DNA of 64,000 nucleotides from an uncultured delta proteobacterium (GCA_963789265.1 CAWBKB010000001.1:2527716-2591715), one strand, 5' to 3'; shown: positions 42,270 through 58,188, counted from the first letter of the stretch. Translations and numbers: made by a program. The notes: generated from the letters alone by a model not told the origin.

Positions 42270-43409
42270 TTACTCGAAGTATTTATCAAGCCCCATCAGG
42301 CTGTGTAATTTTTCAAAATTTGTCCTTTTCATTCGAAACATGACGGTTGCATAACTTAACCCCTCGAAGGGTAGAGCATATCGTTCAAGTCCCGGTTCCG
42401 TGCAGATGAGGCACTCTTGATGAGTGCCGGCGGTCCTACGAAACCGGGAGGCTTGATGCGATCGGACCAGGTTTTCAAAGGACTTGTCCTGAATGTTGCC
42501 AATGGAATAGTTGATAAGCGGGCAAGGATACACATCGCCGGTGCTTCGTATAAAGAAATAGTTGAATCCAGTAGTACAGGGTTTCTCCACACTCCCTGTT
42601 CGGAAATAATTCTGCAAGACGTTTCTGTGATAGCTCCAAGGAAATAGCTCCGTGGAATAGAAACTAGCGAGTTTGTCCAAATCTTTGGCACTGAATTGTA
42701 GTTCCTCACTATGATCGAGGTTGGCGTAGCGGACCTTCGTGAGAATCCGTGGAGAAATGATGGTGAATAATTCTCGATCTTGTGCAAACATTGCGATGGA
42801 AGTCAGGTGGTCGACATTTGCGGGAACGACGGTGGTTTTGAGACCGACCACAAGGTTTGGAAAAGCACGTCGCATTCTGCGGAGGCCGTCAATCGTTTGG
42901 AGAACCTTTGGCCAGGCACCCGATACGCCGCGGATTTTTTCATGGACCTCACCGATTGCATCGACGGCAACTGCAAACACCAAATCGATATGCCTACTAT
43001 TGAGGCGATCTGCCATGACGCCGGCCTTATTCAGTATGCGCCGCGTCAACAGACCGTTCGTTGTGACAGCCACGGTTCGCAATTTGGCGTACAGATCTGG
43101 TTTGTTGTGTGAAATCGCCTCCACGAGATTGACGATATCATCACTTAGGAACGGTTCGCCGCCGGTGATGTCAATTTCTCGGAGTTGCTTCAGCTCGCTT
43201 GACGCCAGGAGTTTCAACCACTCGGAAAGGGGAAGGTCTTTAACAGTGGCAGGAATCTTCCATATATTACACATCATGCATCGAGCGATGCACCGGTGAG
43301 TGATTTCCAAGGACAGCGCTTGAATTGGACAGCTCCCACCGGTTAGCCGGGAAATACGATAGCGGAGGCCGTTTCTTGCCAGCCTCAGCAAAAGTGGCAG
43401 GCTGCTCAT
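42270..43409 (-). CDS. Radical SAM protein with SPASM/Twitch-type C-terminus, last gene of the mft cluster
   Basis: CIARCMMC, ITGGEPF, TTNG, C-terminal CTTG...GDVYPC...CLIC. Confidence 0.88.
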   Translation of the reverse strand: MSSLPLLLRLARNGLRYRISRLTGGSCPIQALSLEITHRCIARCMMCNIWKIPATVKDLPLSEWLKLLASSELKQLREIDITGGEPFLSDDIVNLVEAISHNKPDLYAKLRTVAVTTNGLLTRRILNKAGVMADRLNSRHIDLVFAVAVDAIGEVHEKIRGVSGAWPKVLQTIDGLRRMRRAFPNLVVGLKTTVVPANVDHLTSIAMFAQDRELFTIISPRILTKVRYANLDHSEELQFSAKDLDKLASFYSTELFPWSYHRNVLQNYFRTGSVEKPCTTGFNYFFIRSTGDVYPCPLINYSIGNIQDKSFENLVRSHQASRFRRTAGTHQECLICTEPGLERYALPFEGLSYATVMFRMKRTNFEKLHSLMGLDKYFE

Positions 43410-43416
43410 GCGAACC

Positions 43417-44976
43417 TCACCGGGGGGAATCCGCAGCAAGAGATCTTTGATGTTTACGTTTTACCGACAGCCCCGGAAACACGGGAGAGAAGAACTTTTC
43501 CCTGAAACAGCCGAACCACACTCCTGACTGATACGAAAGCTGCTCCAAGGAAAAAATACCCAAAAAATACAGAATATTAATGTGTGGCTTTCGACTGGAA
43601 AACTCAATTGTTCCCACTCCTAAATGTGCCAGCCATATTGCCGCGGCAGCCACCGGAAAGGCAGGTGCCAGCAAGGTGGCGATAATAAGATAATATCGGG
43701 AGACAAACGAGCAAATCTGGTACATGAAGCTAAAATAGCTGCGAAACACCGCGACCAATACCTGCATCAACGGAACCGGGATTCCCATGTCGCGCACGCT
43801 TCGCCTTCTCATGACGGCGTCGCCCAGAGCCGTCACCGCGGCAAATGCGGCCGCCACAGGTTCTGCAAAAAGTGCCGTAATCAACAGTAACCAAAAGCAT
43901 ACCGCGGCAGGCAAGAGAGCGAACGTTTTTCTTCTTGCCGGATGAAGCGCCTGCAAGAGCGGTTCGCTTGTTCCGTATTCAAACCGTCTCATGCAAAAAG
44001 CTCTCAAGCGGTTTCTGTGCCGATGCAATACTCTTGCCGAGGGACGAAATTCGATCGAGCGGTTGCTGTCCATTATTCGCCAACAGAGGTCCACATCTTC
44101 GCCTACTTCCAGGGCTTCGTTGAATCCCCCCACCTTGAGAAAAAGCTCTCGACGTACCGCAAAATTGCAGGAGGGGAGGTAAAAGAATTTGCTTTTAAGG
44201 GTAGAATCGTTGCAGCGGATTTCAACCTGGAGCGGCGATTTAACCTTTTCGTAACGATCTAGAGGCTCTGTATCATCGTATGAATCTACCAATCCCCCCG
44301 CTGCTCCCACTTGCGGATCCTCGAAGACCGATGTAATTTCCAACAGCCACATTGAGTCCACGACACAATCTGAATCCACGAAGAGCAGTGTTTCGCCATC
44401 TGCTTGCCTTGCACCACGGTTGCGGCACGCTGACGCTCCCTGCCTCTTAGTCATGCGTTCCACCCTTACGGGAAAACGACTGACCACGTCGACGGTTTCA
44501 TCCTCGGAAGCATCGTCTACCACAACGATCTGCAGCTTCTCTTTGGGGTACGCGACCTCGAGAAGAGACTCGAGACATAGCTTGATTTCCGCGGCCCTGT
44601 TGCGGACCGGGATGACAACCGAAACAGTGGCCAGTGGCTCATGCACTGTTGCGCCGTAGCTCTCCAAAAAACCCATCTTTTCAAATCGATAAAGTAAGTG
44701 GTCCAACGAAGTCTCAGCGAGCGAAGGGGTGAGCTTAACCAGATTTTCGGCCGATCGAGGGCCCAAATCTTCTAGGTGGCGGAAGATCTCAGTGAGACCT
44801 GCTCCTAATCGAAGTGCCTTAAGCGGGTAGTTCCGCAGCAGGAATGAATGAGGGACTCTTTGTACCAGTCGTACACCTGTGGCGAGCTTGTAGGTTCGGG
44901 TGCCCAATCGAGCACTGATTGTGTCAATTTTCGACCTGTCGATATGGCCCTCCATGCCAAGACTTTCCGGTGACAT
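43417..44976 (-). CDS. mftF: Mycofactocin glycosyltransferase MftF (GT2)
   Basis: VVIPVRNR, VVDDAS, FVDSDC, RYE...SPL, YLPSCN, VGEDVDLCWR, YGTSE.LL..LHP; TAATG coupling with etfB. Confidence 0.88.
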   Translation of the reverse strand: MSPESLGMEGHIDRSKIDTISARLGTRTYKLATGVRLVQRVPHSFLLRNYPLKALRLGAGLTEIFRHLEDLGPRSAENLVKLTPSLAETSLDHLLYRFEKMGFLESYGATVHEPLATVSVVIPVRNRAAEIKLCLESLLEVAYPKEKLQIVVVDDASEDETVDVVSRFPVRVERMTKRQGASACRNRGARQADGETLLFVDSDCVVDSMWLLEITSVFEDPQVGAAGGLVDSYDDTEPLDRYEKVKSPLQVEIRCNDSTLKSKFFYLPSCNFAVRRELFLKVGGFNEALEVGEDVDLCWRIMDSNRSIEFRPSARVLHRHRNRLRAFCMRRFEYGTSEPLLQALHPARRKTFALLPAAVCFWLLLITALFAEPVAAAFAAVTALGDAVMRRRSVRDMGIPVPLMQVLVAVFRSYFSFMYQICSFVSRYYLIIATLLAPAFPVAAAAIWLAHLGVGTIEFSSRKPHINILYFLGIFSLEQLSYQSGVWFGCFREKFFSPVFPGLSVKRKHQRSLAADSPR

Positions 44977-45839
44977 TACAACAGACCTTTGTCCTTCAGG
45001 AATTGAATCATGCTGCGTGCAAGGTCGCCAGGTTCGGCTTCCAGCAGAGCCCCATCCTTTTTTGCCTCGTCCCGGGAGAGTAGAAGCCTGATGCGCTCCA
45101 CCGCGGGAAGTTCGCTGTCGGGAACGGGAATCCATTTCGGCCGCGGCTTGGGCTCTGTCACCCGACCTAGTCTCACCGCCGGGATGAGGTCGGCGCTTTC
45201 AAGAGACAGATCTTCGCCGTTCCAAGTAATAATCTCTTTATCGGCCGCTTTCAGCATGTCCCGATGGCTCGGATAGCGGGGCTCGCACAAGGTCCTTTCC
45301 ACGCCGACAACAGCAGGCAATGCGCATTCCAGTTCCTGTAACCGACCTCTGCCTAAACTACGCCGGACAAGCATTGTTTTTGAATTTGAGGACAGGTTCA
45401 ATCGCACAGTGGATGACAGATAGGGGTAATCAAGGTTGGAGGCCAAATAGCACCCCACTTGTCCTTGGGCCAGATCGAGAGAACGGGCCCCGCATAAGAC
45501 CAAATCAGCCGAAATTTTCCGAACGGCTTTGCTTAACACTAGAGCTGTCGTTCGGGCGTCTATAACACTCCATTCGGAATCATAAAGGTGAACCAGTTTG
45601 TCTCCGCCAATGGCCAGGGCCCGTCGAGCTTCTTTGTCGAAGAATTCCGGACCGGCCGACAGGATCCACACTTCGCCTCCTACGGCGTCTTTCAACTGTA
45701 CGGCTCTTTCAAGGGCCACCTCGTCCAGCGGGTTATTCAGGCGAACAATGTCATGGGCGGCAACAAAGTTTTTGTCAGGACAGAGTCCACTCCTGGCATA
45801 AACAAAGCTGATCTGCTTCAAACAAACTGCGATCCTCAT
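44976..45839 (-). CDS. etfB: Electron transfer flavoprotein beta subunit (mycofactocin-associated)
   Basis: IAVCLKQ, NPLDEVALE.A, ALAIG.D, DLVLCG.RS.D, LPAVV, PRYP. Confidence 0.9.
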   Translation of the reverse strand: MRIAVCLKQISFVYARSGLCPDKNFVAAHDIVRLNNPLDEVALERAVQLKDAVGGEVWILSAGPEFFDKEARRALAIGGDKLVHLYDSEWSVIDARTTALVLSKAVRKISADLVLCGARSLDLAQGQVGCYLASNLDYPYLSSTVRLNLSSNSKTMLVRRSLGRGRLQELECALPAVVGVERTLCEPRYPSHRDMLKAADKEIITWNGEDLSLESADLIPAVRLGRVTEPKPRPKWIPVPDSELPAVERIRLLLSRDEAKKDGALLEAEPGDLARSMIQFLKDKGLL

Positions 45840-45959
45840 AGGAATGATCTCAACGCCTCCCGCACGAATTTGATTCCAAACAATGAATCGTCCCTTTACT
45901 CCAGCATGGGAGCGCCTTAGACGTCAGATTTCTGATACTCACTCGGAAAGCTACAGGGA

Positions 45960-46125
45960 TTCTCGAAAGTAATCACAAGAATGAATGATTTGATGGTGAC
46001 GGGAATTTTGCTTGGTGGGGATGGGCATCTTGCCCGTCCTTCCCAATAGACAGGCTAGAAGCCTGTCCCACCAATCTAAATCTGGTGCCGAGATGCATCA
46101 TGCACAATGACAACTTTTTCGAGAA
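45960..46125. repeat. Miniature inverted-repeat element with REP doublet inside the mft operon
   Basis: Ends TTCTCGAAA / TTTCGAGAA; internal TTGGTGGGGATGGGCATCTTGCCCGTC...GACAGGCTAGAAGCCTGTCCCACCAA, related to the hairpins at 9243-9350. Confidence 0.65.
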
Positions 46126-46138
46126 CCTCCTTGCACGA

Positions 46139-48709
46139 TCAACGGGTGACCATCTCCACAATCTCGATCACGTCTAAAACCGTTTGCGGTCCAGGACTCA
46201 CCTCGCCTAGGCCATCCTCTATCATTGCCACACAATAAGGACAGGACGTGCTGACCACCTCCGCGGCAGTTTCAGCGCATTGTTTCGCCCTGAGCACGTT
46301 GATTCTACTACCAGTTTCATGAAGCCACATTCGGCCGCCACCTGCTCCGCAGCAAAAAGTGCTGTCCGCTGTGTTGGGCATTTCTTTCAGCCGAGAGTCG
46401 CATACAAGCCCGAGTATTGCCCTTGGGAAATCCGCGAGCCTGTTGACGCGGGAAAGGTAGCACGGATCGTGATATGTCAACTGCTTGCTGAACTGCCTTT
46501 TGGGCCTCAAGAGACCGTTTTGCAGGAGCGATGCAGTCCATTCAACAGCGTGGATTACCCTGAAGTCAGCCCCGAAATCGGGATATTCGTGAGCAAGAGT
46601 GTTGAAGCAATGAGGGCACAGAGTGACAATCCTCTTGACTCCTTGAACTTTGAAGCGCTCCATGTTTCTCTGAACCAATTCCTGAAAAAGAGCTTCCTGC
46701 CCGAGTCGCCGAACGGGGTCGCCACAGCAATTTTCTTGTTCGCCGAGAATCTCCATCCGTTGTCCGGCCCTATTTGCAAGCGCGATGAAAGCCTTTGCCA
46801 CCTCGCGAGCCCGAGGATGAAAAGAAGCCTGACAACCCACCCAGAAAAGAAAATCCTCTTTATCGCCGCCCTCCACAAAATTCTTTTCTAGGCTTTTTGC
46901 CCATATTGTCCTTGAAGCACGACCATATCCAAAAGGATCGCCGTAAACGTCGATGTTTCTCAGGAGTTTTATCGCTTCGGGCGGGACTTTGCCCTGTTCC
47001 AGCACCAATCCGCGGCGTAAATTCATCAGCTTGTTCACATGTTCTACCCCCACGGGGCAAGAACTCTCACACGCGTGACAGCTTGTACACGCCCATATTT
47101 CCTCTTCGGAGATATATTGTGACACAAGCTCCTGACTTCGCGATGTGCTGCCTTTTCGCCTCGTCTCCAGCGCACAGTTACCGATCTCTTGAATTATCTT
47201 CATGGGGTTCAGGGGCTTTTGAGAAGCGTACGCCGGGCAAGAGTCGCGGCATTGGCCGCAACTAACACATGCCTCCGTGTCCAGGAGGTCTTTCCAGGTC
47301 AGATCGTTTGCGGTCGTTATGCCCAGCGGCTGCTCCGAATTCGTACAGCATGGTACCAGTTTCCCGGCAGGTCCCAGCCTGTGAAAAAACAAGTTGAGCG
47401 GCGCAGTAAAAATGTGGCGCAGCGGACTGAACGGCATAGCGGCTAACAGGGCAAAAACCAGGCCGAAGTGAACATACCAGGCTATGGCGATCGCCGCTGG
47501 GGACGGGGGCAAGACGGCAGCCAGTGCCCAACCGACCGGATGGCGCCAGATATCTGATTCCGGAGCGATGGAGATTCGGAATCCTTCGGTCAGGAAGCCC
47601 GTGAGCACTATGAGAACCAGTATGACGAGCACCGTCAATCCAGCAAGTCCTGTTGAAGGAGATGCGTCTAAAGGCTGAAACCGTCTCCGTAGGGCATAGA
47701 CAACCCCGCCCAGCAGAGCGAGCCCGACAATCTCCAGGAACAGAGATGCAAACCCGGCGGCAAGTGCGGGAACAGGAGGATCGAATTGCAGAGCCAGTAC
47801 GATCAAGCCCGGTATCAGTACACCCAAGAATATAAAATAATGACTGAATCCAACGCTAGGACGGCGAAAGACCCTTCGCTGGCCTATGGTGGCCCACCAC
47901 AGAGCAACGAGTCTCCGCCCGGGTTTGTCCCACCGTCTGAGGGATCTGCCTGACATCCAGAAAAGGAGGCGATTCACCCACCCCCAAAAAAATACCACGA
48001 TACAGCATCCCAGAAACAGCGGGTATGCCAACGTCCAAATCGTTGCGGAATCGGATGCAGTCTGCCATCTGGTGGGGTGCGGGGCCCCTATGAGAAAGCG
48101 GGAGCCTGGGCTGGAATTGTGACATTTCGTACATAAAACCCCGGCTGGCGGACTCGATTCTCGATGAGCGACGTGCTTGAAGTGACAGGAAAGGCACTGA
48201 TATCTCGAATACGGTCTGCTGGCGTCTGCCTTTCCGTGGGCTGTGATGCGAAAAACCCACAGAGACTTCAACAAGGACCCGGCGCCTATCTGTTCCGGGT
48301 GGCAGCGGCCGCACGTTGCAGCGATCCGCTTAGGATTGAGCGTCGAGAGGGGGTTTTCCGGAGGGAGCACGTTGTGCCCGCCGTGACAGACTGCACATGA
48401 AACCGGTTGGCCCATTCTCCTCGGGTGAGAGCTGACCTCGGAATGGCAGTCACCACAGACGGCGGCCGAAACGGCTTGGCTCTTCTGATGCGCCTGAGTG
48501 GCCGCAGTCGGATGACACGACAAGCAAGAAACATTTCGGCCATGAACCGAGGACCGGAGGGTGTCGATGTTAATTTCAAACTTACTCTTGCCGCTCCCGG
48601 CCAGATGACACGCGAGGCATTCTTGATCGTTTCTGGCGGCATAGGACACCAGGCAACAGAACTCTACGGCCATCACGACACACGCCAAGCACAAGCATCT
48701 CCAGTTCAT
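46139..48709 (-). CDS. Fusion: heptaheme cytochrome c + NarI-like cytochrome b membrane domain + 2x[4Fe-4S] + two CCG domains (FadF/HdrD/EMO-like)
   Basis: Signal-like N-terminus; CLACH, CLSCH, CGDCH, CAVCH, CGRCH, CLSCH, CTKCH; about 6 TM helices with His; CVSCGQCRDSCP, CTSCHACESSCP; NCCG..CPHC, HDPC..FCCGAGGG..CPYC. Confidence 0.88.
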   Translation of the reverse strand: MNWRCLCLACVVMAVEFCCLVSYAARNDQECLACHLAGSGKSKFEINIDTLRSSVHGRNVSCLSCHPTAATQAHQKSQAVSAAVCGDCHSEVSSHPRRMGQPVSCAVCHGGHNVLPPENPLSTLNPKRIAATCGRCHPEQIGAGSLLKSLWVFRITAHGKADASRPYSRYQCLSCHFKHVAHRESSPPAGVLCTKCHNSSPGSRFLIGAPHPTRWQTASDSATIWTLAYPLFLGCCIVVFFWGWVNRLLFWMSGRSLRRWDKPGRRLVALWWATIGQRRVFRRPSVGFSHYFIFLGVLIPGLIVLALQFDPPVPALAAGFASLFLEIVGLALLGGVVYALRRRFQPLDASPSTGLAGLTVLVILVLIVLTGFLTEGFRISIAPESDIWRHPVGWALAAVLPPSPAAIAIAWYVHFGLVFALLAAMPFSPLRHIFTAPLNLFFHRLGPAGKLVPCCTNSEQPLGITTANDLTWKDLLDTEACVSCGQCRDSCPAYASQKPLNPMKIIQEIGNCALETRRKGSTSRSQELVSQYISEEEIWACTSCHACESSCPVGVEHVNKLMNLRRGLVLEQGKVPPEAIKLLRNIDVYGDPFGYGRASRTIWAKSLEKNFVEGGDKEDFLFWVGCQASFHPRAREVAKAFIALANRAGQRMEILGEQENCCGDPVRRLGQEALFQELVQRNMERFKVQGVKRIVTLCPHCFNTLAHEYPDFGADFRVIHAVEWTASLLQNGLLRPKRQFSKQLTYHDPCYLSRVNRLADFPRAILGLVCDSRLKEMPNTADSTFCCGAGGGRMWLHETGSRINVLRAKQCAETAAEVVSTSCPYCVAMIEDGLGEVSPGPQTVLDVIEIVEMVTR

Positions 48710-49755
48710 GAGCCTTGCCTCTCAAATTCTTGGGCGTCGTGCTTGTCCTGTTCGAGCAGCCTTAGCAGTTGAACTAGAACATCTCTTCCGTATCCGACCA
48801 GGCCCAAATCGGAAAACCGGAATATCCTAGCCTGAGGATCTTTGTTTATTGCCACTATAGTCTGCGCTTCTTCTATCCCGGTTGTGAACTCGTTTGCTCC
48901 GGAAATTCCCCATGCGAATAGAAGTCTAGGGGAAACCGTTGTGCCGGTCTGTCCGATTTGTCGCTCAAACGGTAACAGACCCGAGTCCACCACCGGTCTG
49001 GTCCCTGCCATAACGCCGCGAAAGATGTTTCTTAGTTCGTGCAGTTGTGGCAAGTCCTCGGGGGCCATTCCCCGCCCGAATGCAATGACTGTTTCCGCCT
49101 CCCCAAGAGTCACAGCTTCGGGATCTTCCTGAATGACTCGCAGCAATTTCACTCGATCCGATTTCGGAGCAGATAAGGGATCAATCTGAACCAACTGTGC
49201 GCTTCGATCGGGCTCCGGTCGAAAGCGGCTTAGAGCCTCGGGGTCCCAGCATAGCACCGAGACGCCTAGGCCGGACAGAAATACGTGCTGGTGCAGTCTG
49301 CCTCCTTGAATTGACTGCACGGCCCGGATGCCGGCTGTCGGATCCCATTGAGCGTCGGTGCAGTTCGAGACCAGAGGCGAATCGAGCTCTACAGCTACAC
49401 GAGGAGAGAGATCGGCTGCCCATCCACTTCCTGCGAATGCGACCACCGCGACATTGACTTGCCGCGCCAGTCCGGCCACGGTTTCTGCCACACATTCAGG
49501 CAGGCTGGAGCTTGGGTCAGAGGGGCAACGATAAACAACGCTTGCACCGAATTGCCCCAAAACCGAAGCGGCATTGTTCTCGGGGCCAAATATCAGGGCC
49601 TTCACCCCGTCCGCAGCGTGCGGAAATAACGGGTAATTTCGAGAGTGCGCCACTAATGCCACCGAGGCAGGGGTTACCTGTCCCGCTTGGGTCTCGCACA
49701 CGACAAGAACGCCTTTGGCTTCCGGCGACGTAGCCTCCGGCATGTTCTCAGCCAT
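48706..49755 (-). CDS. etfA: Electron transfer flavoprotein alpha subunit
   Basis: FGRGM, GTRPVVD.G, QIGQTG..VSP, GISGA, IVAINKDP.A.IF. Confidence 0.9.
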   Translation of the reverse strand: MAENMPEATSPEAKGVLVVCETQAGQVTPASVALVAHSRNYPLFPHAADGVKALIFGPENNAASVLGQFGASVVYRCPSDPSSSLPECVAETVAGLARQVNVAVVAFAGSGWAADLSPRVAVELDSPLVSNCTDAQWDPTAGIRAVQSIQGGRLHQHVFLSGLGVSVLCWDPEALSRFRPEPDRSAQLVQIDPLSAPKSDRVKLLRVIQEDPEAVTLGEAETVIAFGRGMAPEDLPQLHELRNIFRGVMAGTRPVVDSGLLPFERQIGQTGTTVSPRLLFAWGISGANEFTTGIEEAQTIVAINKDPQARIFRFSDLGLVGYGRDVLVQLLRLLEQDKHDAQEFERQGS

Positions 49756-51716
49756 TATATTATTCTTCCGATCATCCGGCCTTCCAATATGGCTGAATCA
49801 AGCTTGCGGGGCGCAACGCAGTCCCCGATTCTGTACAACTCGTTCACTTTCCCTTTAAGTGAAAAGTACAAGTGGTCCACTGATTGATTTCTCGCTGCAA
49901 ACACAATGTTGTCGTGATCAGCAAACTCCAGAAATTCGCCTGAATAAACTTGCACACATTTGATGACCGTTCCCTGTATTTCCAGGACAGCCACATCATT
50001 GGTGAATGTCACGTTCTTGAGTGCCAGGCGCCGCCGAGACAAGTGGAAATCCTGCAGAGGGCCGAGGTTGCTCCCGATAGAGAGGGACGGCGTGAGAATG
50101 TGAACTTTCTTTCCTCTATCGGCCAGGAATTCAGCGGTAGCGTTACAACCGTGATGCCCGTCCATGTCCACGATGACCACCCGTTCACCCAAATTCACCT
50201 CTTCATTGAGCACCTGCCATAGGTTTACCGCCGTGGGCGGCCCGTATTCGCCGGGAAAGGGCTTCTCTGGGGGGGTCGAACCGGCGGCAACTACAACCGC
50301 GTCGGGATTTTGATCCAGCACCATTTGATCGGTTGCAGCAGTCAGAAGCCGCAACTCGATGTTGGCAAGCTTCGAAACCTGGCCAATCAGCCATCGGCTG
50401 ACGCCTTCTATTTCCGACCGGCCCGTTGCCTTGCTTGCTATCAGGATTTGGCCCCCCGGTTTTGCACCCTTTTCGAAAAGGATCACCGAGTGGCCTCGTA
50501 AGGCCAACACTCGTGCCGCTTCCAGACCGGCAGGACCAGCCCCTACGACCACAACTTTTTTGGCGCGATCCGCGGGCGAGAGGGTATCCGATCCGAGCTC
50601 TCCTTCTCGTCCCACTGCGGGGTTCTGAATGCAGCTCAAACCGTGCCCAAGCCCCATGCGACCGATGCACCCCTGATTGTCGGCTACGCAATGTCTTATG
50701 TCACCCGTACGGCCTTCTCTGGCCTTGTTGGGCAAATCGGGATCGCAAATCAAAGCTCTTACCATCCCGATCATATCTGCATGACCGTCCGCGAGTATTC
50801 GTTCAGCCAGATGAGGATCGTTGATGCGATTCGTGGCAAAAACCGGGAGCGTAACGCCGCTCTTTATGGTGGAGGCCAAAGGAACCGTGTAAGCTAAAGG
50901 TGTGTGCATGGAACCTTCTACGAGGTAGAGATTGTAAAAAGTCGCAATGCTCAGATCCACGAAGTCTATGAGGCCGGTGGCTTCCAGCCTTCTGGCTATC
51001 TCCGCCGCGTCCTTGACGGTGAGCCCGCCGCGCGGATGCATTTCATCGGCATTCAGCCGCACTCCCACGGTGAAATCGCTCCCTGTTGCTCTTCTAACTG
51101 CCTCAATCACCTCGCGACAGAAACGAAATCTGCCGTCGAGATTGCCGCCGTATTCGTCCTCTCTGCGATTGGTGAGTGGTGAGAGAAACTGCCTGATCAG
51201 CGAGCTATGCCCAATCTGAATCTCGATTCCGTCAAATCCCCCTTCGCGACAATGCTTAGCGGCTCCAGCGAAAGAGCGTACGCACTCCTCGATCTCTTCC
51301 AGTTCCATCTCTTTGCACCACTCACGAAATATGGGATCGAATGTCTGTGAAGGTCCCCATACTGCCTTCCGAGTGAAGCTCCCATCCCCCTGAGAGCCGT
51401 TATGGTTGAGCTGGGCAAAAATCTTGGTTTCGTACCGGTGGATAGTTTGTGTAAGCCGTTTAAAGCCGGGAATTACATCAGGGGCAAAAGCGAAAACCAA
51501 TTCTTCGTAAGGATGGTCCGAGGGGTGAACCGAAAGCTCCTCGGTTACAATGAGACCGGCCCCGCCTCTGGCCCTCTCGCGATAATAGTAGACGTGCTTT
51601 TCGCTTATTTTGTTGTTCTCTCCAAAGTTAGTCAGATGAGCGGAAAAGCTGATTCTGTTTGCGACCACCACAGAGCCCAGTCTGAGAGGCGAGAACAAGA
51701 GCTTGAATTCAGCCAT
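49755..51716 (-). CDS. FadH/OYE-family flavin-FeS oxidoreductase 2 (mycofactocin system)
   Basis: NRISFSAHLTNF, GGAGLIVTEELSVHPSDHPYE, SLIRQFLSPLTNRR.D.YGG, RALICDP, VGAGPAGLEAA. Confidence 0.9.
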   Translation of the reverse strand: MAEFKLLFSPLRLGSVVVANRISFSAHLTNFGENNKISEKHVYYYRERARGGAGLIVTEELSVHPSDHPYEELVFAFAPDVIPGFKRLTQTIHRYETKIFAQLNHNGSQGDGSFTRKAVWGPSQTFDPIFREWCKEMELEEIEECVRSFAGAAKHCREGGFDGIEIQIGHSSLIRQFLSPLTNRREDEYGGNLDGRFRFCREVIEAVRRATGSDFTVGVRLNADEMHPRGGLTVKDAAEIARRLEATGLIDFVDLSIATFYNLYLVEGSMHTPLAYTVPLASTIKSGVTLPVFATNRINDPHLAERILADGHADMIGMVRALICDPDLPNKAREGRTGDIRHCVADNQGCIGRMGLGHGLSCIQNPAVGREGELGSDTLSPADRAKKVVVVGAGPAGLEAARVLALRGHSVILFEKGAKPGGQILIASKATGRSEIEGVSRWLIGQVSKLANIELRLLTAATDQMVLDQNPDAVVVAAGSTPPEKPFPGEYGPPTAVNLWQVLNEEVNLGERVVIVDMDGHHGCNATAEFLADRGKKVHILTPSLSIGSNLGPLQDFHLSRRRLALKNVTFTNDVAVLEIQGTVIKCVQVYSGEFLEFADHDNIVFAARNQSVDHLYFSLKGKVNELYRIGDCVAPRKLDSAILEGRMIGRII

Positions 51717-51742
51717 CTAATGGTCTCCGTGGTTTGGCTGTT

Positions 51743-53695
51743 TCAGATAGCACGTGCAATCGTGTAGCCATCCATAATGGCTGTGTCGATTTTTCGAGGT
51801 GCAACGCAGTCACCGACTTTATAGAGGGCCGGTACTCTGCCTTTCAGTTCTCGGTAGAGCCTGTCTTCGCACACATTGCCGAGAGCCAAGACGATGGTGT
51901 CATAATCTGCTGTTTCAGAAATCTGTTCCGTGAACTTGTCTGCCACTACGGCGCGAGTACCCCGAATCTCCAGGACCACTGTATCAGGGATAAACCGGAC
52001 GCCCTTCTTGAGCAATCTTTGTCGGATCAAGAACAGGTCACCGATCGGAGCCAGATCCATGCCCACGAAAGGTTCGCCGGTCATGATGTCCACATTTCTA
52101 TTCCTGTCTGCCAGGAACTCCGCGGTGGAAAGAGCTCTGTAATGCCCGTCTTCATCCACGAGAAGAACTTTTTGGCCGATCTGATAGGTGCCTTTGAGCA
52201 CATCCCACACATTCAAAACCGTTGGTGGGCCGTATTTTCCTCTGACAGGGCGCGGATCAGGATACGATCCGGTCGCCACAATAACCACGTCAGGAGACAA
52301 GTCTATTACCGTAGCTGCGTCGAGAGGAGATCGAGTCAAAACAGTGACCCGCCATTTCTCCAGTTGTCTGGTCAGATTCTCGATTACGCCCCAGATTTCA
52401 CTTCGGCCCGGACCTATCCTTGCCAGTCGCAGTTGGCCACCGGGCTCATTTTCGCTCTCGTATACGGTAACATGATGCCCTCGTTTGGCTGCTGTAAGGG
52501 CCGACTCGAGGCCCGCGGGCCCGGCGCCGACGACAATGACCCGTTTGCTCGAAGTTCCAGTAGAGCTGTGCTCGCCGAGACCGAAAGTCTCTCTTCCTGC
52601 TCGCGGATTCAGAATGCAGGAGATCGGTTTGATTTGGGCGACCTTGCCCACACAGTTCTGATTGTCCGAGACGCAGTAAACGATCTCGTCAATTTTGCCT
52701 TCATACAATTTCCGCGGAAGCCAAGGATCGCAGATCAAGGGTCTGACCCAACCTACAAGATCCGCCTTGCCCTGCTTCAGCGCTTCCTCAACCCGCTCCG
52801 GAATGGGCATCCTGTTTCCGGCGAAAACAGGCACGGAAACAGCCTGCTTCAGCGTGGACACCATGTCCAAAGTCAGGGCCATAGGGTGGTGCATGGATGC
52901 CCTGGCCTGATGGAAGTTGTAATAGGTTCCGACAGTCGTGTTGAAAAAATCAACCAAGCCGAGAGATTCCAATTCCCGGGCAGCATTGAGAGAGTCCTCG
53001 AGCGTCAGCGCATTCCAGAACATTTCGTCCAGACAAAGCCTGATTCCCACGGGAAAGCCCGTTCCTACCGCTTGTTTCACACCCTGGAGCACTTCCTCAG
53101 TGAGCTTCATTCTTCCCTGGAAATTGACGCCGTAGCGGTCTTGCCGGTGATTGGTGAGCGGCGAGAGAAACTGCCGCAGGAGACTATCTTCGCCGACGTC
53201 TATCTCTAACCCGTCAAATCCTGCCTGTTCGAGGGAGGTTGCTGCTCGTGAAAATGACGCAACGAGCTCCTCGAAATCGCTGTTTTCCATGGCTTTGCAC
53301 ATCTCGCCATGGGCTATGTCGGCCGTAGGCTCCGGCCCCCAGATAGGCATCCTGCTTATTACGCCTTGACTTTGAAACCCGCGGTGAGTGAGCTGTGCGA
53401 AGACCAGTGAATTCTGCTCATGAATCCGCTCTGCCAGCTTTTCGAGCCGCGGTGTCTCACTACCTCGATGCAGGTGAATCATTTTCTCGTAAGGTCGATC
53501 GTTCGGGTGGATGCTGAATTCACCGACGATTACGAGGCCGCAACCGCCTTTGGCCCTTTCAGCATAATAGGCGATCAGCGCATCGCTAATTGTTCCTTTT
53601 CCTGCGAGATTGGTTCGATGGGCGCAAAAGGCAACCCGGTTGCGGACGCGAGCACGTCCAAGATTCAAAGGCGACAACAGCGTCTCAAACCGCAT
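51743..53695 (-). CDS. FadH/OYE-family flavin-FeS oxidoreductase 1 (mycofactocin system)
   Basis: NRVAFCAHRTNL, SIHPNDRPYE, SLLRQFLSPLTN.R.D.YG, RPLICDP, VGAGPAGLESA; paralog of the neighbour. Confidence 0.9.
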   Translation of the reverse strand: MRFETLLSPLNLGRARVRNRVAFCAHRTNLAGKGTISDALIAYYAERAKGGCGLVIVGEFSIHPNDRPYEKMIHLHRGSETPRLEKLAERIHEQNSLVFAQLTHRGFQSQGVISRMPIWGPEPTADIAHGEMCKAMENSDFEELVASFSRAATSLEQAGFDGLEIDVGEDSLLRQFLSPLTNHRQDRYGVNFQGRMKLTEEVLQGVKQAVGTGFPVGIRLCLDEMFWNALTLEDSLNAARELESLGLVDFFNTTVGTYYNFHQARASMHHPMALTLDMVSTLKQAVSVPVFAGNRMPIPERVEEALKQGKADLVGWVRPLICDPWLPRKLYEGKIDEIVYCVSDNQNCVGKVAQIKPISCILNPRAGRETFGLGEHSSTGTSSKRVIVVGAGPAGLESALTAAKRGHHVTVYESENEPGGQLRLARIGPGRSEIWGVIENLTRQLEKWRVTVLTRSPLDAATVIDLSPDVVIVATGSYPDPRPVRGKYGPPTVLNVWDVLKGTYQIGQKVLLVDEDGHYRALSTAEFLADRNRNVDIMTGEPFVGMDLAPIGDLFLIRQRLLKKGVRFIPDTVVLEIRGTRAVVADKFTEQISETADYDTIVLALGNVCEDRLYRELKGRVPALYKVGDCVAPRKIDTAIMDGYTIARAI

Positions 53696-54725
53696 GCTCT
53701 GCGCCCCGCACATTTTGTGAACTTTGGCATTGCACCAGGCATTCCGGATCGGCCAACCCCAATTCGCCGTGGCCATGGTAAGCCACGGCCGGACAGCCGC
53801 CCCGGCATGTCTCAAACCGGAAGCAGGTCTCGCATGACTTGACGTTCATCCCGCGGAATGTGGCAAAAATGTTCGAACGCAGCCAGATTTCGCGGAACTT
53901 GAGATCGCGTACATTACCGGCGAGGAATTCTGGCTCTTGCAAGAACGCACATGGATAGACGGAACCATCCGGAGAGAGGCAACAGGTCAGCTTTGCGGCT
54001 CCGCAGATATCAAGGCCCATTCTGCGCCTCTTTTCGGATGTCAGGCTGAAGAAAGAGTCGCCGGTCAACACCTGGCAGTGTTGATTCAGCCAGTGAGAAA
54101 AACCCTCGAGCTGATCTGCGTCAGGCGCCATCTCCTCCTGGCAATCTTTGCCTCTGCCGGAGGGACGAAATCTGCTGATTCTCAAGTTCGTACCCATGTC
54201 TCGGGCCATAGCATTGAGCGTGTCTATTTGAGGAAAGCTCCATCTGGTCAGGACAGTGTTTATGCTGAACTTGATCCCCTGCATAGCCAGGTTTTCTACG
54301 GCCTTACGTATCTGCCGGTACGTCCCTCTTCCGCGGATCCGATCGTTTGTGGCCTCGTCCGCCCCATCCAAGCTGACCTGCAAGTAGAGACCTTCTATTT
54401 CTGCGAGCTCCCGGCACGTTTCCTTGTCGAAGAAGGTCCCGTTGGAGCTGACGCATGAAACTATGCCAAGCCGTTCCGCAGCACGAAGGATTTGAAAGAT
54501 GTCGGGCCGTAGAAAAGGTTCGCCGCCTCCAAAATTAATTTGGAAGACCTGGAGTTTCGCAAGTTCACTCAACACATTGAGGGCTTCTTGCGTGGAAAGC
54601 TCATTCCGCAAGGGCTCGCCCGCATTCGACAGACAGTGTCTGCACTTCAGATTGCACCGCAGTGAAACTTCCCACGTCACGTTGACGGGCGCGGAGAGTC
54701 CTTCACGTGCCAGCCTTGCAAGCAT
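53685..54725 (-). CDS. mftC: Mycofactocin radical SAM maturase MftC
   Basis: APVNVTWE, CNLKCRHCLS, FQINFGGGEP, QVSLDGA, SRFRPSGRG, VLTGDSFF, CGA.KL.C...P.G.VYPCAF, C..C.....CRGGCPA. Confidence 0.95.
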   Translation of the reverse strand: MLARLAREGLSAPVNVTWEVSLRCNLKCRHCLSNAGEPLRNELSTQEALNVLSELAKLQVFQINFGGGEPFLRPDIFQILRAAERLGIVSCVSSNGTFFDKETCRELAEIEGLYLQVSLDGADEATNDRIRGRGTYRQIRKAVENLAMQGIKFSINTVLTRWSFPQIDTLNAMARDMGTNLRISRFRPSGRGKDCQEEMAPDADQLEGFSHWLNQHCQVLTGDSFFSLTSEKRRRMGLDICGAAKLTCCLSPDGSVYPCAFLQEPEFLAGNVRDLKFREIWLRSNIFATFRGMNVKSCETCFRFETCRGGCPAVAYHGHGELGLADPECLVQCQSSQNVRGAEHAV

Positions 54726-55002
54726 GCACTACTCCTTTTCTTTCCAAACGTTCCAGCGCCCTTTCCAGAGCCTTGACAATCTCCCGGCTTACGTTTCTTA
54801 TTTTACACCATCGTGCCGGGCTTTGTCTTGATGCAAAGAATTGCGGAGTAAGCAAGTCGCCCGATGATAGGAAATAGAGGCGCGGCCCATTGCGATCGTA
54901 AAAAAGGAGTCCCGAGCGCTCGTTTCTCACCCGCACATTAGGGGCTAGCACATAAGCCGGTGCGGGTCCCTCCAGCGACTCAGTACACACCGCAAATTCC
55001 AT
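54703..55002 (-). CDS. mftB: Mycofactocin RRE chaperone MftB (start uncertain, overlaps mftA end)
   Basis: Y.LAPNVRVRNE..GLLFY....PRLYFL; C-terminal ALERL..KG; lies between mftA and mftC. Confidence 0.85.
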   Translation of the reverse strand: MEFAVCTESLEGPAPAYVLAPNVRVRNERSGLLFYDRNGPRLYFLSSGDLLTPQFFASRQSPARWCKIRNVSREIVKALERALERLERKGVVHACKAGT

Positions 55003-55120
55003 CTATGGCTACCTCTTCGATGTCAATTTCGGTGAAGGTCAGATCCTCCTTTTCTGCCTGGCCATCGGCACGTTCATCTGTATTCGTATGCTCAGGTATG
55101 GTTTGTTCGGTTTGTTCCAT
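54980..55120 (-). CDS. mftA: Mycofactocin precursor peptide MftA (46 aa)
   Basis: Manual translation MEQTEQTIPEHTNTDERADGQAEKEDLTFTEIDIEEVAIDGICGVY*; SD AGAGG; canonical IDGxCGVY terminus. Confidence 0.96.
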   Translation of the reverse strand: MEQTEQTIPEHTNTDERADGQAEKEDLTFTEIDIEEVAIDGICGVY

Positions 55121-55441
55121 TGCGGACCTCTTTACTAATCAGTTAATCAGATGAGCCGCCCTTTATTCGGAGCCGGCTCTGGCCACAATCTTTCCCTCTT
55201 CTTGAGGGAAAGACCGTTCGCCAGCTTCTGAACTTGCTACAAATGGCGGGGACGCAGGATACGAACCAATTCCTCCGGTGTAGTTTAGGCTACGCAAGAT
55301 GTCCGGCCTGAAGTAAAGCTTACCGGCTTCCAGGTTTATCCGGAGCACCTTCAGCCTCGCCACGCCATTCAGCACCTGGGATTCCCGGATAAAAAGCTCT
55401 GTTTCCGTCGGCTGCCCTGAACCGCCGGACCTGCTGGAAGC

Positions 55442-56653
55442 TCAGATACAGGATCGCATAATCTCCTTGATCTGTTCAGGGGTGATGTCGCGAGGATTGG
55501 CTTCCCGCGAGAGATCGTTACTCGCCCATTTAGCCGTGTGCTCGATGTCGGCTTCGGAAAAATCAAAGGTGCTCAGCGGGACCTGTGGAATGCCCACATC
55601 ATTGCGGAGCCGTTCGATCTCTTCCAGGGTTTTCTCCGCGGCGTGGACCGGGTGCATGTGCCCCACATCCAGGCCCATGGCCTGACCGATTTCCTTGAAA
55701 CGTTCCGGGACGGCCACCACGTTGAAGCGTTCCACCGGAATCATCATGATCGCGTTTGTGTACCCATGATGAAGATCCTTGATTACTGACAACATGTGTG
55801 CGGTTCCGTGAACCATACCCATGCCTCCACCCATGTTGTAGGCCATGGAGGCAATGAACTGTGCCCAGGCCATGTTTTCAATGGCCACATCGTTGAACGG
55901 GTTAGCGTAGGCCTGGCGAATATTCTCGCTAAGGAGCTTGATGGCACGGAGGCCGACAGCATGCACGTGAGGCATATTGAACCGGCCGATGGTCGGCTCC
56001 ATAGCGTGACAGAATGCATCCATGCCCGCCCAGGCAATCATGTTCGGGGGCTGTAGCCTCATGAAGAGGGGATCGTTAATACCCACTGAGGGCCCCACTC
56101 CAGGGACCACGAGGATTAGCTTGTAGACCCACTCTACGTCATTGATGATTGCAAAGGCCGTACCCTCCGCCCCGGTGCCCGTGGTCGTATTGATTGCCAC
56201 GTGGGGGATTTGCACAATCTTGTATGTGGGTATGCGGGTAGTGTAATGCGGATCAAGGAAAGCGCAAAACTGCCTGAGGTCGGTGTCCGGTCCTTCATTG
56301 GTCATCATAATGCGAATGCCCTTGCCCGCGTCGTGGGCGCTCCCACCCCCGACTGAGACAATGCCGTCACACCCTGCCTCCTGGTAGACCTTGGCCCCGG
56401 CCTTGCATTCGTAGTCCTTGGGATTAGAGGTAACCCCGTCGAAAAGTGTCACAGCCACGCCGGCCGCCTTGAGTACTCCTTCGACCTCTTCAACGATGCC
56501 TGTCCCTCTCAGCCCGGTGGTGACCAGTAGGGCGTGCTTAATGGCGTAGGCCTGGCATTCTACGCCTGCCATTGTATGCGCACCCCAGCCCACAATCCCG
56601 CGTGAGTGTTGGTGTACATAAAGCAGTGGGAATTGCTTGCGTTCGAAGTTCAT
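55442..56653 (-). CDS. Group III (Fe-containing) alcohol dehydrogenase, Mno/Mdo nicotinoprotein-like
   Basis: TTGLRGTGIV, SNPKDY, GGGSAHDAGKG.RI, HVAINTT.GTG.E, HHG..NAI resemble NDMA-dependent methanol dehydrogenases; directly upstream of mftA. Confidence 0.8.
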   Translation of the reverse strand: MNFERKQFPLLYVHQHSRGIVGWGAHTMAGVECQAYAIKHALLVTTGLRGTGIVEEVEGVLKAAGVAVTLFDGVTSNPKDYECKAGAKVYQEAGCDGIVSVGGGSAHDAGKGIRIMMTNEGPDTDLRQFCAFLDPHYTTRIPTYKIVQIPHVAINTTTGTGAEGTAFAIINDVEWVYKLILVVPGVGPSVGINDPLFMRLQPPNMIAWAGMDAFCHAMEPTIGRFNMPHVHAVGLRAIKLLSENIRQAYANPFNDVAIENMAWAQFIASMAYNMGGGMGMVHGTAHMLSVIKDLHHGYTNAIMMIPVERFNVVAVPERFKEIGQAMGLDVGHMHPVHAAEKTLEEIERLRNDVGIPQVPLSTFDFSEADIEHTAKWASNDLSREANPRDITPEQIKEIMRSCI

Positions 56654-56706
56654 CGTATTACTCCTTTTCTGACAGAGGCGCGGCCAGTACCTCTTGTCTC
56701 GAGCCT

Positions 56707-58188
56707 TCACTTGAGGATCTGGTACCAGGGTTTGACAGCTTGGCCTGTCAGATCCAGATAGATATGTTTAGTAACTGTGTATTCTTCCAAAACCATTGTG
56801 GACAGATCCTTGCCCCATCCGGACTCCTTGCAACCTCCCCACGGCGTCTCGCAGAATAATATGAGATGCTCGTTTACCCACACTGTGCCGGCTTTGATCT
56901 GGGAAGCTGCCACGAGCCCCTGCGGAATATTCTTGGTCCATACCGAAGCGCACAAGCCATAGGGCGTGTCATTGGTAAGTGCAACCGCTTCTTCCAAAGA
57001 ACTGATCTTCACTAATCCAACTACAGGACCAAATATTTCCGATCTCATGAATTCCATGTCATTGGTACAGTTGCCGAAAACAGTGGGCGTAACGAAATAT
57101 CCATTCCGAGTCTCCGGTGTATTCGGACGCTCTCCTCCGCAAAGCAGTTTTGCCCCACTTTTCTTTGCAGATTCCACGAAGGACTCGATTTTGTCCCTGT
57201 GGGCCCGGGACGCGACCGGCCCCAAAACTGTAGCGGGGTCCATCGGATCGCCATAAGGTAGAGTCGAAGCGGCTTTCGCTAGTTTTTCTGCAAATTCGTC
57301 ATAGATAGATTCGTGGATATAGAACCGGCTTGCCGCAGCACATACTTGACCGCTGTTGAAGAAGGCTCCGAAAACAGCCCCCTCCACTGCAGAATCAACA
57401 TCTGCATCCGGCAGAACCACAAAGGAATTCTTTCCACCCAGCTCAAGTCCCACCTGTTTGACGCTGTCACTTGCGATGCGCATTATGCGCTTGCCGGTCG
57501 CCGTATCGCCTGTGAAACCTATCTTGGCCACTTTCGGGTGTCGTACGAGAGCTTCTCCGACTATGTCTCCGGCGCCGGTAAGGACGTTTACCGTGCCCGC
57601 GGGCGCTCCAGCTTCTACAAAGATCTCTGCAAGCTTGAGAGTGGTCAAGGGTGCAACGGACGGAGGCTTTACGATGCACGTGTTGCCGGTAACGAGGGCG
57701 GCTCCCAGTTTCCAAACCACCATCAGAGCAGGGAAGTTCCACGGAGTTATCAAACCGACCACTCCGTGCGGCTCACGCACAGTCATCGATAGACACCATG
57801 GACCGACAGGCAAAGTCTCGCCGGTCAATGACCGTGCAATACCTGCGAAATACTCCAATTGTTCAGCGCACATGGGCACATCGAAATTCATCGTTTTACG
57901 TATAGGGGACCCCTGCTCTGCAGTTTCGAGCATTGCAAGGGCCTCCTGCTGTTCCATGATCAGTTTGGAAGCTTTGTAAAGTATCTTAGAGCGATCCGTC
58001 ATCGTGCGGGCTGCCCAGCCCGGCGCTGCTGCCTCTGCAGCCTGGACGGCAGCGTCCACATCGGCAACTCCACATTTGGGGACCGTACCAACCACCTCTC
58101 CATTCGCGGGGTTGGTGACTTCGAAAGTTTCACCGCTTGCGGAGGATACCCATTGACCTCCGATGAGAACCTTGTAATCCTCTGCCAT
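56707..58188 (-). CDS. NAD(P)-dependent aldehyde dehydrogenase
   Basis: ITPWNFP, FTGDT.TG, LELGGKN, FFNSGQVC, EIFGPV, PWGG.KESG.G. Confidence 0.95.
   Translation of the reverse strand: MAEDYKVLIGGQWVSSASGETFEVTNPANGEVVGTVPKCGVADVDAAVQAAEAAAPGWAARTMTDRSKILYKASKLIMEQQEALAMLETAEQGSPIRKTMNFDVPMCAEQLEYFAGIARSLTGETLPVGPWCLSMTVREPHGVVGLITPWNFPALMVVWKLGAALVTGNTCIVKPPSVAPLTTLKLAEIFVEAGAPAGTVNVLTGAGDIVGEALVRHPKVAKIGFTGDTATGKRIMRIASDSVKQVGLELGGKNSFVVLPDADVDSAVEGAVFGAFFNSGQVCAAASRFYIHESIYDEFAEKLAKAASTLPYGDPMDPATVLGPVASRAHRDKIESFVESAKKSGAKLLCGGERPNTPETRNGYFVTPTVFGNCTNDMEFMRSEIFGPVVGLVKISSLEEAVALTNDTPYGLCASVWTKNIPQGLVAASQIKAGTVWVNEHLILFCETPWGGCKESGWGKDLSTMVLEEYTVTKHIYLDLTGQAVKPWYQILK

Follow-up and report, generated by a model that had tools for sequence, protein, structure and literature searches.

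A conserved mycofactocin cluster with OYE, ETF and seven-heme EMO genes in an uncultured delta proteobacterium, and a likely oxygen-free route from alcohols to respiration

The window analyzed here is a 64,000-nucleotide stretch of the genome of an uncultured delta proteobacterium related to sulfate reducers (G000; 6.06 Mb, 95.6% complete, 6.1% contaminated). Positions are window coordinates, other G numbers denote sampled genomes, and L numbers denote loci on gene maps. The window contains a mycofactocin (mft) cluster whose twelve genes run in the order aldehyde dehydrogenase (ALDH), iron-type alcohol dehydrogenase (Fe-ADH), mftA, mftB, mftC, OYEa, OYEb, etfA, a gene for an 856-aa EMO fusion protein, etfB, mftF, and a second radical SAM gene. 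This locus is a real, conserved variant of a mycofactocin cluster type that is named in databases and has gone unstudied, and it likely encodes an oxygen-free route from alcohols to respiration. Our preferred reading, to which we assign a probability of roughly 0.6, is that the operon both produces mycofactocin and employs it as an oxygen-free electron shuttle, with OYE2 (the product of OYEb) replacing both MftD and MftG and feeding an electron-transfer flavoprotein (ETF) and the EMO.

In this scheme, MftB and MftC would cyclise the Val-Tyr end of MftA, AHDP would be freed by a peptidase whose gene lies elsewhere, and MftF would add sugars. The Fe-ADH would reduce mycofactocin from bound NAD, and the ALDH would remove the aldehyde. 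OYE2, alone or together with OYEa, which lacks the active-site histidine, would act like trimethylamine dehydrogenase (TMADH) or histamine dehydrogenase. Its FMN would take a hydride from lactam carbon C3, which carries an amine in AHDP and a hydroxyl in reduced mycofactocin, and single electrons would pass through a [4Fe-4S] cluster to the dedicated ETF. Since AHDP deamination and mycofactocinol oxidation share the removal of a hydride from C3, one site could do the work of both MftD and MftG, and a TMADH-like enzyme wired to an ETF could carry out either reaction without oxygen. The ETF would then unload into the Fe-S and heme b wire of the EMO, which would end at the membrane quinone, at the fused periplasmic seven-heme domain, or at both. 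We infer each of these reactions, along with the direction in which electrons move, the substrate, and the terminal acceptor.

Conservation of the cluster and its biosynthetic genes

Gene content, co-occurrence, and ligand motifs were read directly from the sequences. A preliminary description, made from the sequence alone, had presented the twelve genes in the above order as co-directional and largely overlapping. Gene calls and family profile scores confirmed that all twelve are real and lie in that order on the minus strand. Counted from the likely start codons, six of the eleven junctions overlap, three are gaps of 7–53 nt, and two are gaps of about 300 nt, namely from the ADH gene to mftA (321 nt) and from the EMO gene to etfB (299 nt).

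We sampled 401 genomes spread evenly over the host's phylum, 19 of which had MftC above cut-off. When the top two candidates per genome were scored, OYE2 (TIGR03997) was above cut-off in 16 of those 19 and in 0 of the 382 MftC-negative genomes, with the caveat that related genomes are not independent. One exception, G215, has OYEa together with an incomplete OYEb on a contig of 2.7 kb. MftG (TIGR03970) was not detected at E 1e-20 in any of 32 MftC-positive genomes, G000 among them.

The preliminary description had called for a comparison of synteny, and this showed that the core order mftC-OYEa-OYEb-etfA-cytochrome/EMO recurs in eight other loci, so the arrangement in the window is not due to chance. 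On the gene maps, this EMO-type layout (the window, L010, L014, L091, L092, L094, L096, L099, and L101) continues with etfB and mftF where the contig extends. A single gene encodes cytochrome and EMO in the window, L010, and L014, and the other six loci have them as separate genes. A second layout, OYE2-etfA-fixC-like-etfB, occurs in eight Desulfobacterota loci, in L013, and in several Firmicutes and actinobacterial loci; here, the label FixC-like rests on gene position and an FAD-binding domain. The outlet, EMO or FixC-like, is thus swappable between clusters. A third layout, SDR-mftABC-mftF-lar genes, has no OYE, and one example of it is a second cluster in G000 itself (L009). The linked dehydrogenase also differs between clusters, being an Fe-ADH, a Zn-ADH, or an SDR, the three classes that Haft 2011 tied to mycofactocin. 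An MftC search of genome contigs gave at least five MftC-like loci at 48% or more identity among the 80 matches listed. A metagenome search with OYEa gave one locus, L166, whose proteins duplicate those of L010 and which was not counted separately.

MftA, MftB, MftC, and MftF, as labeled in the preliminary description, all score above their NCBIfam cut-offs, which completes the invariant core of Haft 2011, and the precursor ends in the canonical Gly-Val-Tyr. The remaining biosynthetic genes are a different matter. The best G000 score for MftD (TIGR03966) was 22 bits against a cut-off of 471, and MftE (TIGR03964 or the creatininase family) had zero matches in G000. MftD was above cut-off in none of 16 genomes tested, five of which hold weaker homologues. 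Of 23 genomes, 3 had a long FMN_dh match and 12 had a creatininase, never inside an mft cluster. MftD uses oxygen, and for strict anaerobes the locus offers a candidate enzyme for that step. When MftE is lost in M. smegmatis, an unidentified peptidase partly takes its place and mycofactocin is still made, while loss of MftD abolishes it (PMC7491314), so the absence of MftE should be tolerable and the absence of MftD calls for a substitute. The preliminary description had missed this gap: neither gene was found anywhere in G000, so the OYEs probably also complete the synthesis of the cofactor.

OYE2, the ETF, and the membrane outlet

The two OYE proteins had been labeled OYE1 and OYE2. The second label is borne out, since OYEb exceeds the TIGR03997 cut-off; OYEa falls short of both the OYE1 and the OYE2 model (Table 1), and a true OYE1 (L122) scores 659 on TIGR03996. 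In a quick tree, OYEa forms its own nine-member group next to OYE2 (joint-group support 99), apart from actinobacterial OYE1, and we rejected the OYE1 assignment. OYEa lacks the active-site histidine (OYEb position 170) and Glu59 in all nine members, and actinobacterial OYE1 lacks the equivalent histidine in 5/5. A histidine-less OYE partner thus seems to have arisen independently in two lineages, a pattern that points to either an additional subunit or an additional reaction.

OYEb is a candidate TMADH-like FMN/[4Fe-4S] dehydrogenase replacing MftD and MftG. Its domains are an FMN barrel, a [4Fe-4S] domain, and a nucleotide domain without an NADPH motif, and gene order points to the cluster ETF as its electron partner. 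The predicted structure (pLDDT 85) superimposes on TMADH and on histamine dehydrogenase with a TM-score of 0.88, and across TMADH (2TMD, 1O94), histamine dehydrogenase, and the amine oxidase HisD, which share the three-domain FMN/[4Fe-4S]/nucleotide fold, the range is 0.84–0.88. His170 is present in 22/22 OYE2-type sequences and aligns with the TMADH histidine. Position 172 is Ser, while 7/7 non-mft paralogues have the Tyr typical of ene-reductases. In the small domain, OYE2 shares an acidic Asp-x-Asp-type signature with TMADH, histamine dehydrogenase, and HisD; the corresponding residues in FadH and NCR are glycines. The active-site histidine, the acidic signature, and a non-bifurcating ETF partner are therefore common to OYE2 and the TMADH group. 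Unlike TMADH, OYE2 has no cysteine for 6-S-cysteinyl attachment of FMN (the position holds Leu, Met, or Pro), and Glu and Gln occupy the positions of the two active-site tyrosines of TMADH.

As a separate observation, the second cysteine of the [4Fe-4S] motif is replaced by Asp in both window OYEs (window:49755-53695), which is a further difference from TMADH. The same Asp is present in 9/9 OYEa, 3/9 OYEb, and 9/10 single OYE2 sequences, and it may tune the potential of the cluster.

The cluster ETF is, by sequence criteria, of a dedicated non-bifurcating type. Among PDB entries, EtfB best matches the ETF that partners TMADH in the complex 1o94 (E 5e-25). The [IV]DGD motif, which marks bifurcating-type EtfBs and is visible in the 7koe alignment, is absent from 23/23 mft EtfBs, and a quick unrooted tree separates these 23 from 13 other EtfBs (SH-aLRT 96). 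Based on the missing motif and the tree grouping, we ruled out a bifurcating ETF.

What had been described as a cytochrome/Fe-S fusion is an ETF:quinone oxidoreductase of the EMO/EtfD type, and none of its heme b or Fe-S ligands is missing. Hydropathy and domain matches divide the 856-aa protein into a signal-like N-terminus, a seven-heme c domain (residues 31–197), a five-helix cytochrome b domain, two [4Fe-4S] motifs, and two CCG domains, including the blocking His. Its His290, His432, and His414 align with EtfD His78, His241, and His223, which have been described as heme b ligands (proximal pair and distal) in EtfD and Syntrophus EMO; all three are kept in 15/15 aligned EMOs. The CCG cysteine set is complete in 7/7 mft EMOs, which form their own group (support 99). 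The seven-heme domain has seven CxxCH motifs and seven further invariant His in 8/8 aligned sequences; L091, with five CxxCH motifs, was left out of that alignment. Since the N-terminus of EMO faces the periplasm in Syntrophus, the fusion would place the seven hemes on the outer side, close to the distal heme b site. The genes etfA and etfB flank the EMO gene. A single-sequence structure model of the whole protein was too poor for use (pLDDT 41), and searches of a protein-cluster atlas yielded nothing more specific than generic radical SAM and cytochrome clusters.

Of the 401 genomes, 108 matched a profile built on the heme domain, and 14/14 of the best matches outside the training set adjoin an EMO-like gene. 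In the seven loci that we enlarged (six of those 14 plus G146), etfAB lies beside the EMO gene each time, and the three neighbor genes tested are all acyl-CoA dehydrogenases. A mycofactocin-specific membrane module is thereby rejected, because the cytochrome-EMO pair also stands beside etfAB in beta-oxidation loci, from which, judging by these neighborhoods, the module is borrowed. For the chain put forward in the preliminary description, comparative genomics gives good support to the wiring (OYE2 confined to MftC-positive genomes, no MftG, a non-bifurcating ETF, a complete EMO).

Several observations touch the membrane module from the side. In many beta-oxidation loci of Desulfobacterota (L140-L160), EMO and etfAB have a gene for a membrane-anchored seven-heme cytochrome as their neighbor, and the cytochrome is fused to EMO in L154 (883 aa). 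No description of an EMO-linked seven-heme cytochrome was found in the literature searched; the supplements of bioRxiv 10.64898/2026.08.18.745454 hold an EMO alignment and phylogeny and may bear on this partner. In a second EMO-like gene beside etfAB in G000 (G000:C1:894759-896795), four cysteines are gone from the first CCG domain, so the product probably lacks one Fe-S cluster.

Weighing the readings

The potential of ethanol is -197 mV. Published potentials are -255 mV for premycofactocin (PMFT) and -74 mV for menaquinone (PMC7491314, PMC11778925). Computed with this ethanol value, transfer from ethanol to PMFT costs +11 kJ/mol, compared with +24 kJ/mol to free NAD+, and the published potentials give about -35 kJ/mol for PMFTH2 to menaquinone.

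A number of results weigh against our preferred reading. If the cluster ETF sits at -10 mV like the ETFs of beta-oxidation, its transfer to menaquinone is uphill by 12 kJ/mol. No MqnC, MqnA/D, or MenB was above cut-off in G000, and MqnA/D and MenB were not found in 7/7 sampled family members (MqnC was checked in G000 only). With no menaquinone ring synthesis genes found in G000, a membrane quinone as acceptor is at most plausible for this host. A UbiA-UbiD pair is present in G000 (L161), and MqnA/D occurs in 4/8 other EMO-type genomes. The closest solved structure and top sequence match of OYE2 is a reductase, NCR (6QKG; TM 0.91, compared with 0.85 for FadH, 1PS9). The two MftC-positive genomes G340 and G397 have no OYE2 orthologue (best 36–40% identity) and no MftD above cut-off, so OYE2 may not be obligatory; both assemblies are in about 400–460 contigs. 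EtfA and EtfB match the mycofactocin ETF models NF038209 and TIGR04503 best and yet fall below their cut-offs (Table 1). The FixC-type ETF pair of L090 likewise fails (137/240 and 78/200), so these models may be narrow. Finally, the ADH scores 252 bits against a cut-off of 625 on its family model, TIGR04266. Separately, G401, the closest named relative of G000, does have MqnA/D.

It is possible that the OYE-ETF-EMO chain only substitutes for MftD, handling the electrons of AHDP deamination in an anaerobe, with reduced mycofactocin recycled in some other way. The module sits between mftC and mftF, where mftD sits in the canonical cluster, the nearest dehydrogenase relatives of OYE2 deaminate amines, and the M. 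smegmatis phenotype described above makes MftD the indispensable step. We consider this unlikely because MftG is missing as well from all 32 genomes, and the EMO-type gene maps offer no other candidate for a recycler. A dedicated ETF and a multi-heme membrane wire also seem oversized for trace biosynthesis.

A second explanation, which we regard as doubtful, is that the OYEs act on a different cofactor made from the same precursor, either an amine or imine form or a congener altered by a radical SAM enzyme. MftD and MftE are lacking, some clusters have no OYE at all, six precursors end in Ile-Tyr, and the extra radical SAM enzyme of the window is, by its distribution, linked to mycofactocin. 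None of its 25 best NCBIfam matches reaches cut-off. Orthologues are present in 9/29 MftC-positive genomes and, apart from one 33% partial match, in 0/51 MftC-negative genomes, and the gene adjoins mftF in 7 of the 9 orthologue-bearing genomes. Against a different cofactor, the window precursor ends canonically and passes TIGR03969, M. smegmatis without MftE still makes mycofactocin (PMC7491314), and the radical SAM enzyme was not found in 20/29 MftC-positive genomes and is therefore optional. That same count led us to reject it as a general replacement for MftD or MftE. Given that it is optional, our best guess is that it tailors the glycosylated cofactor.

A bolder version of our own scheme can also be drawn. 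OYE2 and OYEa would oxidize the MftC-modified peptide directly at C3, and hydrolysis of the resulting acyl-imine would yield premycofactocin, replacing MftE as well as MftD; the two would then recycle the cofactor. In a host with no recognizable menaquinone ring synthesis, the EMO-seven-heme fusion would provide a quinone-independent path for electrons through the membrane, and a new mycofactocin congener would come from the second radical SAM enzyme. We rate this combination as improbable.

Electrons might also run in reverse, from periplasmic hemes or quinol through EMO and ETF to the OYEs, which would then reduce mycofactocin for aldehyde reduction or for radical SAM enzymes. The kinship of OYE2 to the reductase NCR fits such a direction, and EMO works both ways in Syntrophus. 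However, an ALDH or AOR-like gene lies in or beside many mft clusters, which points to oxidation of alcohol to acid, and an ETF of the beta-oxidation type would need about 47 kJ/mol to reduce PMFT (-255 mV). Reverse flow is quite unlikely on these grounds.

The preliminary description had called the ADH Mno-like, a label that its TIGR04266 (Mno/Mdo) score does not sustain. The protein does carry the TSNPKDYE motif, a NAD-site loop that Haft 2011 tied to mycofactocin and that occurs once in G000. Its relatives reach 43% identity in L133 and 41.5% in L177 and at most 34% in five genomes of the same family; among those seen, relatives above 40% occur only in mft-positive genomes. In L133, a Firmicutes mft cluster, the ADH relative is followed by an ALDH relative (72%), and a further ALDH relative (66%) is in the mft cluster L013. 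From these sequence features, the Fe-ADH is a probable mycofactocin-linked nicotinoprotein and not Mno itself. That the ADH and ALDH lie upstream by chance, as ordinary NAD-exchanging enzymes with no use for mycofactocin, is very unlikely, as the exact motif, the matching gene pair in L133, and the restriction of close relatives to mft-positive genomes outweigh the 321-nt gap before mftA, the score far under the Mno cut-off, and the admission in Haft 2011 that the group had no clean model and that the authors' own reading was guarded.

Known systems and genomic surroundings

The locus shares with the canonical mftABCDEF plus mftG system of Mycobacterium and Rhodococcus the MftA, MftB, MftC, and MftF proteins above cut-off, the Gly-Val-Tyr precursor, and a linked nicotinoprotein-type dehydrogenase. 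In place of MftD, MftE, and MftG, it has two OYEs, an ETF, an EMO-seven-heme protein, and a second radical SAM enzyme. Closer to it are the OYE/ETF clusters of NCBIfam with a FixCX-like outlet, which likewise have OYE2 above cut-off and, between mftC and mftF, etfA and etfB flanking a terminal oxidoreductase. It differs from these in its outlet (EMO plus seven-heme cytochrome), in ETF subunits below the model cut-offs, and in its second OYE, which is an independent OYE2 duplicate and not OYE1. NCBIfam already names 'mycofactocin system FadH/OYE oxidoreductase 1 and 2' (TIGR03996, TIGR03997) and a mycofactocin-associated ETF (NF038209, TIGR04503). These names already imply an OYE-ETF module for mycofactocin, so what is unexpected here is the outlet, together with the accessory genes.

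NCR and FadH show the highest structural likeness to OYE2, and their Fe-S motif is spaced identically. Both retain a Tyr where OYE2 has Ser, and both carry a glycine-rich motif in the small domain that OYE2 lacks. EMO/EtfD (Syntrophus aciditrophicus; M. smegmatis PDB 9OJN) shares with the window protein the five-helix NarI-type domain, the three conserved His, two [4Fe-4S] motifs, two CCG domains with a His-blocked cluster, and adjacent etfAB. The window EMO has in addition the N-terminal periplasmic seven-heme c domain and a complete CCG cysteine set, whereas SaEMO and EtfD are each one cysteine short. Known EMO is fed by an acyl-CoA dehydrogenase, whereas the window EMO is proposed to be fed by an OYE. 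The literature consulted also included PMC3023750, PMC13083937, PMC8805022, PMC9679996, PMC7744413, and PMC8406134.

Haft 2011 lists anaerobes that carry the mycofactocin cluster, and a term search of its text found no mention of 'OYE' or 'old yellow'. No study of the OYE-ETF-EMO module was found in the mycofactocin and ETF literature searched; some reviews and work on MftD outside that search may discuss it. Graca et al. 2025 (PMC11778925) left the recycling route open for about 25% of mftC genomes, those without MftG. The present locus offers for such recycling a complete, purifiable candidate chain from alcohol to membrane. EMO, so far tied to fatty-acid beta-oxidation, would gain a new electron donor if the chain is true. 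The locus also highlights two uncharacterized proteins, the EMO-linked seven-heme cytochrome found across Desulfobacterota and the mycofactocin-linked radical SAM enzyme.

Table 1. Features of the mycofactocin locus in window coordinates
Feature	Position	Strand	Support
Aldehyde dehydrogenase, 493 aa	56707..58188	-	PF00171 585 bits
Fe-type (group III) alcohol dehydrogenase, 403 aa	55442..56653	-	PF00465, TSNPKDYE motif
mftA precursor, 46 aa, end IDGICGVY	54980..55120	-	TIGR03969 29.8 bits, cut-off 25
mftB peptide chaperone	54703..55002	-	TIGR03967 48.8 bits, cut-off 33
mftC radical SAM/SPASM maturase	53685..54725	-	TIGR03962 332 bits, cut-off 265
OYEa, FMN/[4Fe-4S] flavoprotein, OYE2 duplicate	51743..53695	-	TIGR03997 713/793; TIGR03996 348/628
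OYEb, mycofactocin OYE2	49755..51716	-	TIGR03997 858 bits, cut-off 793
etfA	48706..49755	-	PF00766 and PF01012; NF038209 120/240
EMO/EtfD-type ETF:quinone oxidoreductase, 856 aa	46139..48709	-	EtfD 9ojn match E 7.6e-87
Short REP-like intergenic repeat, multicopy, between the EMO gene and etfB	46018..46073	unstranded	BLAST against genome
etfB, non-bifurcating type, with C-terminal extension typical of mft EtfBs	44976..45839	-	TIGR04503 101/200
mftF glycosyltransferase	43417..44976	-	TIGR03965 350 bits, cut-off 280
Second radical SAM enzyme, short (twitch-type) Fe-S domain	42270..43409	-	PF04055 and PF13186

The repeat in the EMO-etfB gap matched 141 BLAST pieces across G000, with the self-match counted. 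The same gap is only about 100 nt in L010, compared with the 299 nt that hold the REP-like repeat in the window. Scans of the locus for promoters (7 sites vs. 9.9 in shuffles) and terminators (16 vs. 17.4) showed no excess, and no sigma-54 pattern was found in five gaps.

Upstream on the same strand lies an ABC transporter of the branched-chain-amino-acid type (window:58418-62991). Relatives of its binding protein (70%) lie upstream of the EMO-type clusters L014 and L091, and for this reason the transporter may import the substrate of the chain. The block downstream (window:36557-42048) looks unrelated, with carboxymuconolactone-decarboxylase-like, cupin, aldo-keto reductase, SDR, and YqhD-like Fe-ADH genes and a divergent AraC regulator. 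Elsewhere in G000, dsrA was matched as two pieces (G000:C6:339556-340795), probably because of a frameshift or sequencing error.

In the EMO-type cluster L094, a different radical SAM/SPASM gene (L094:1932-3191) lies between etfB and mftF. The second mft cluster of G000 (L009:3877-15530, contig C4) contains DUF362, DUF362/Fer4, Mrp, a mycofactocin SDR (NF040490 522 bits, cut-off 385), mftA, mftB, mftC, mftF, larE, larB, and larC, and its mftA ends in Ile-Tyr. Nickel-pincer cofactor genes accompany mycofactocin genes in blocks of this type, which recur in whole or in part in L093, L095, L097, L098, L100, L103, L107, and L109, often together with an AOR-like gene.

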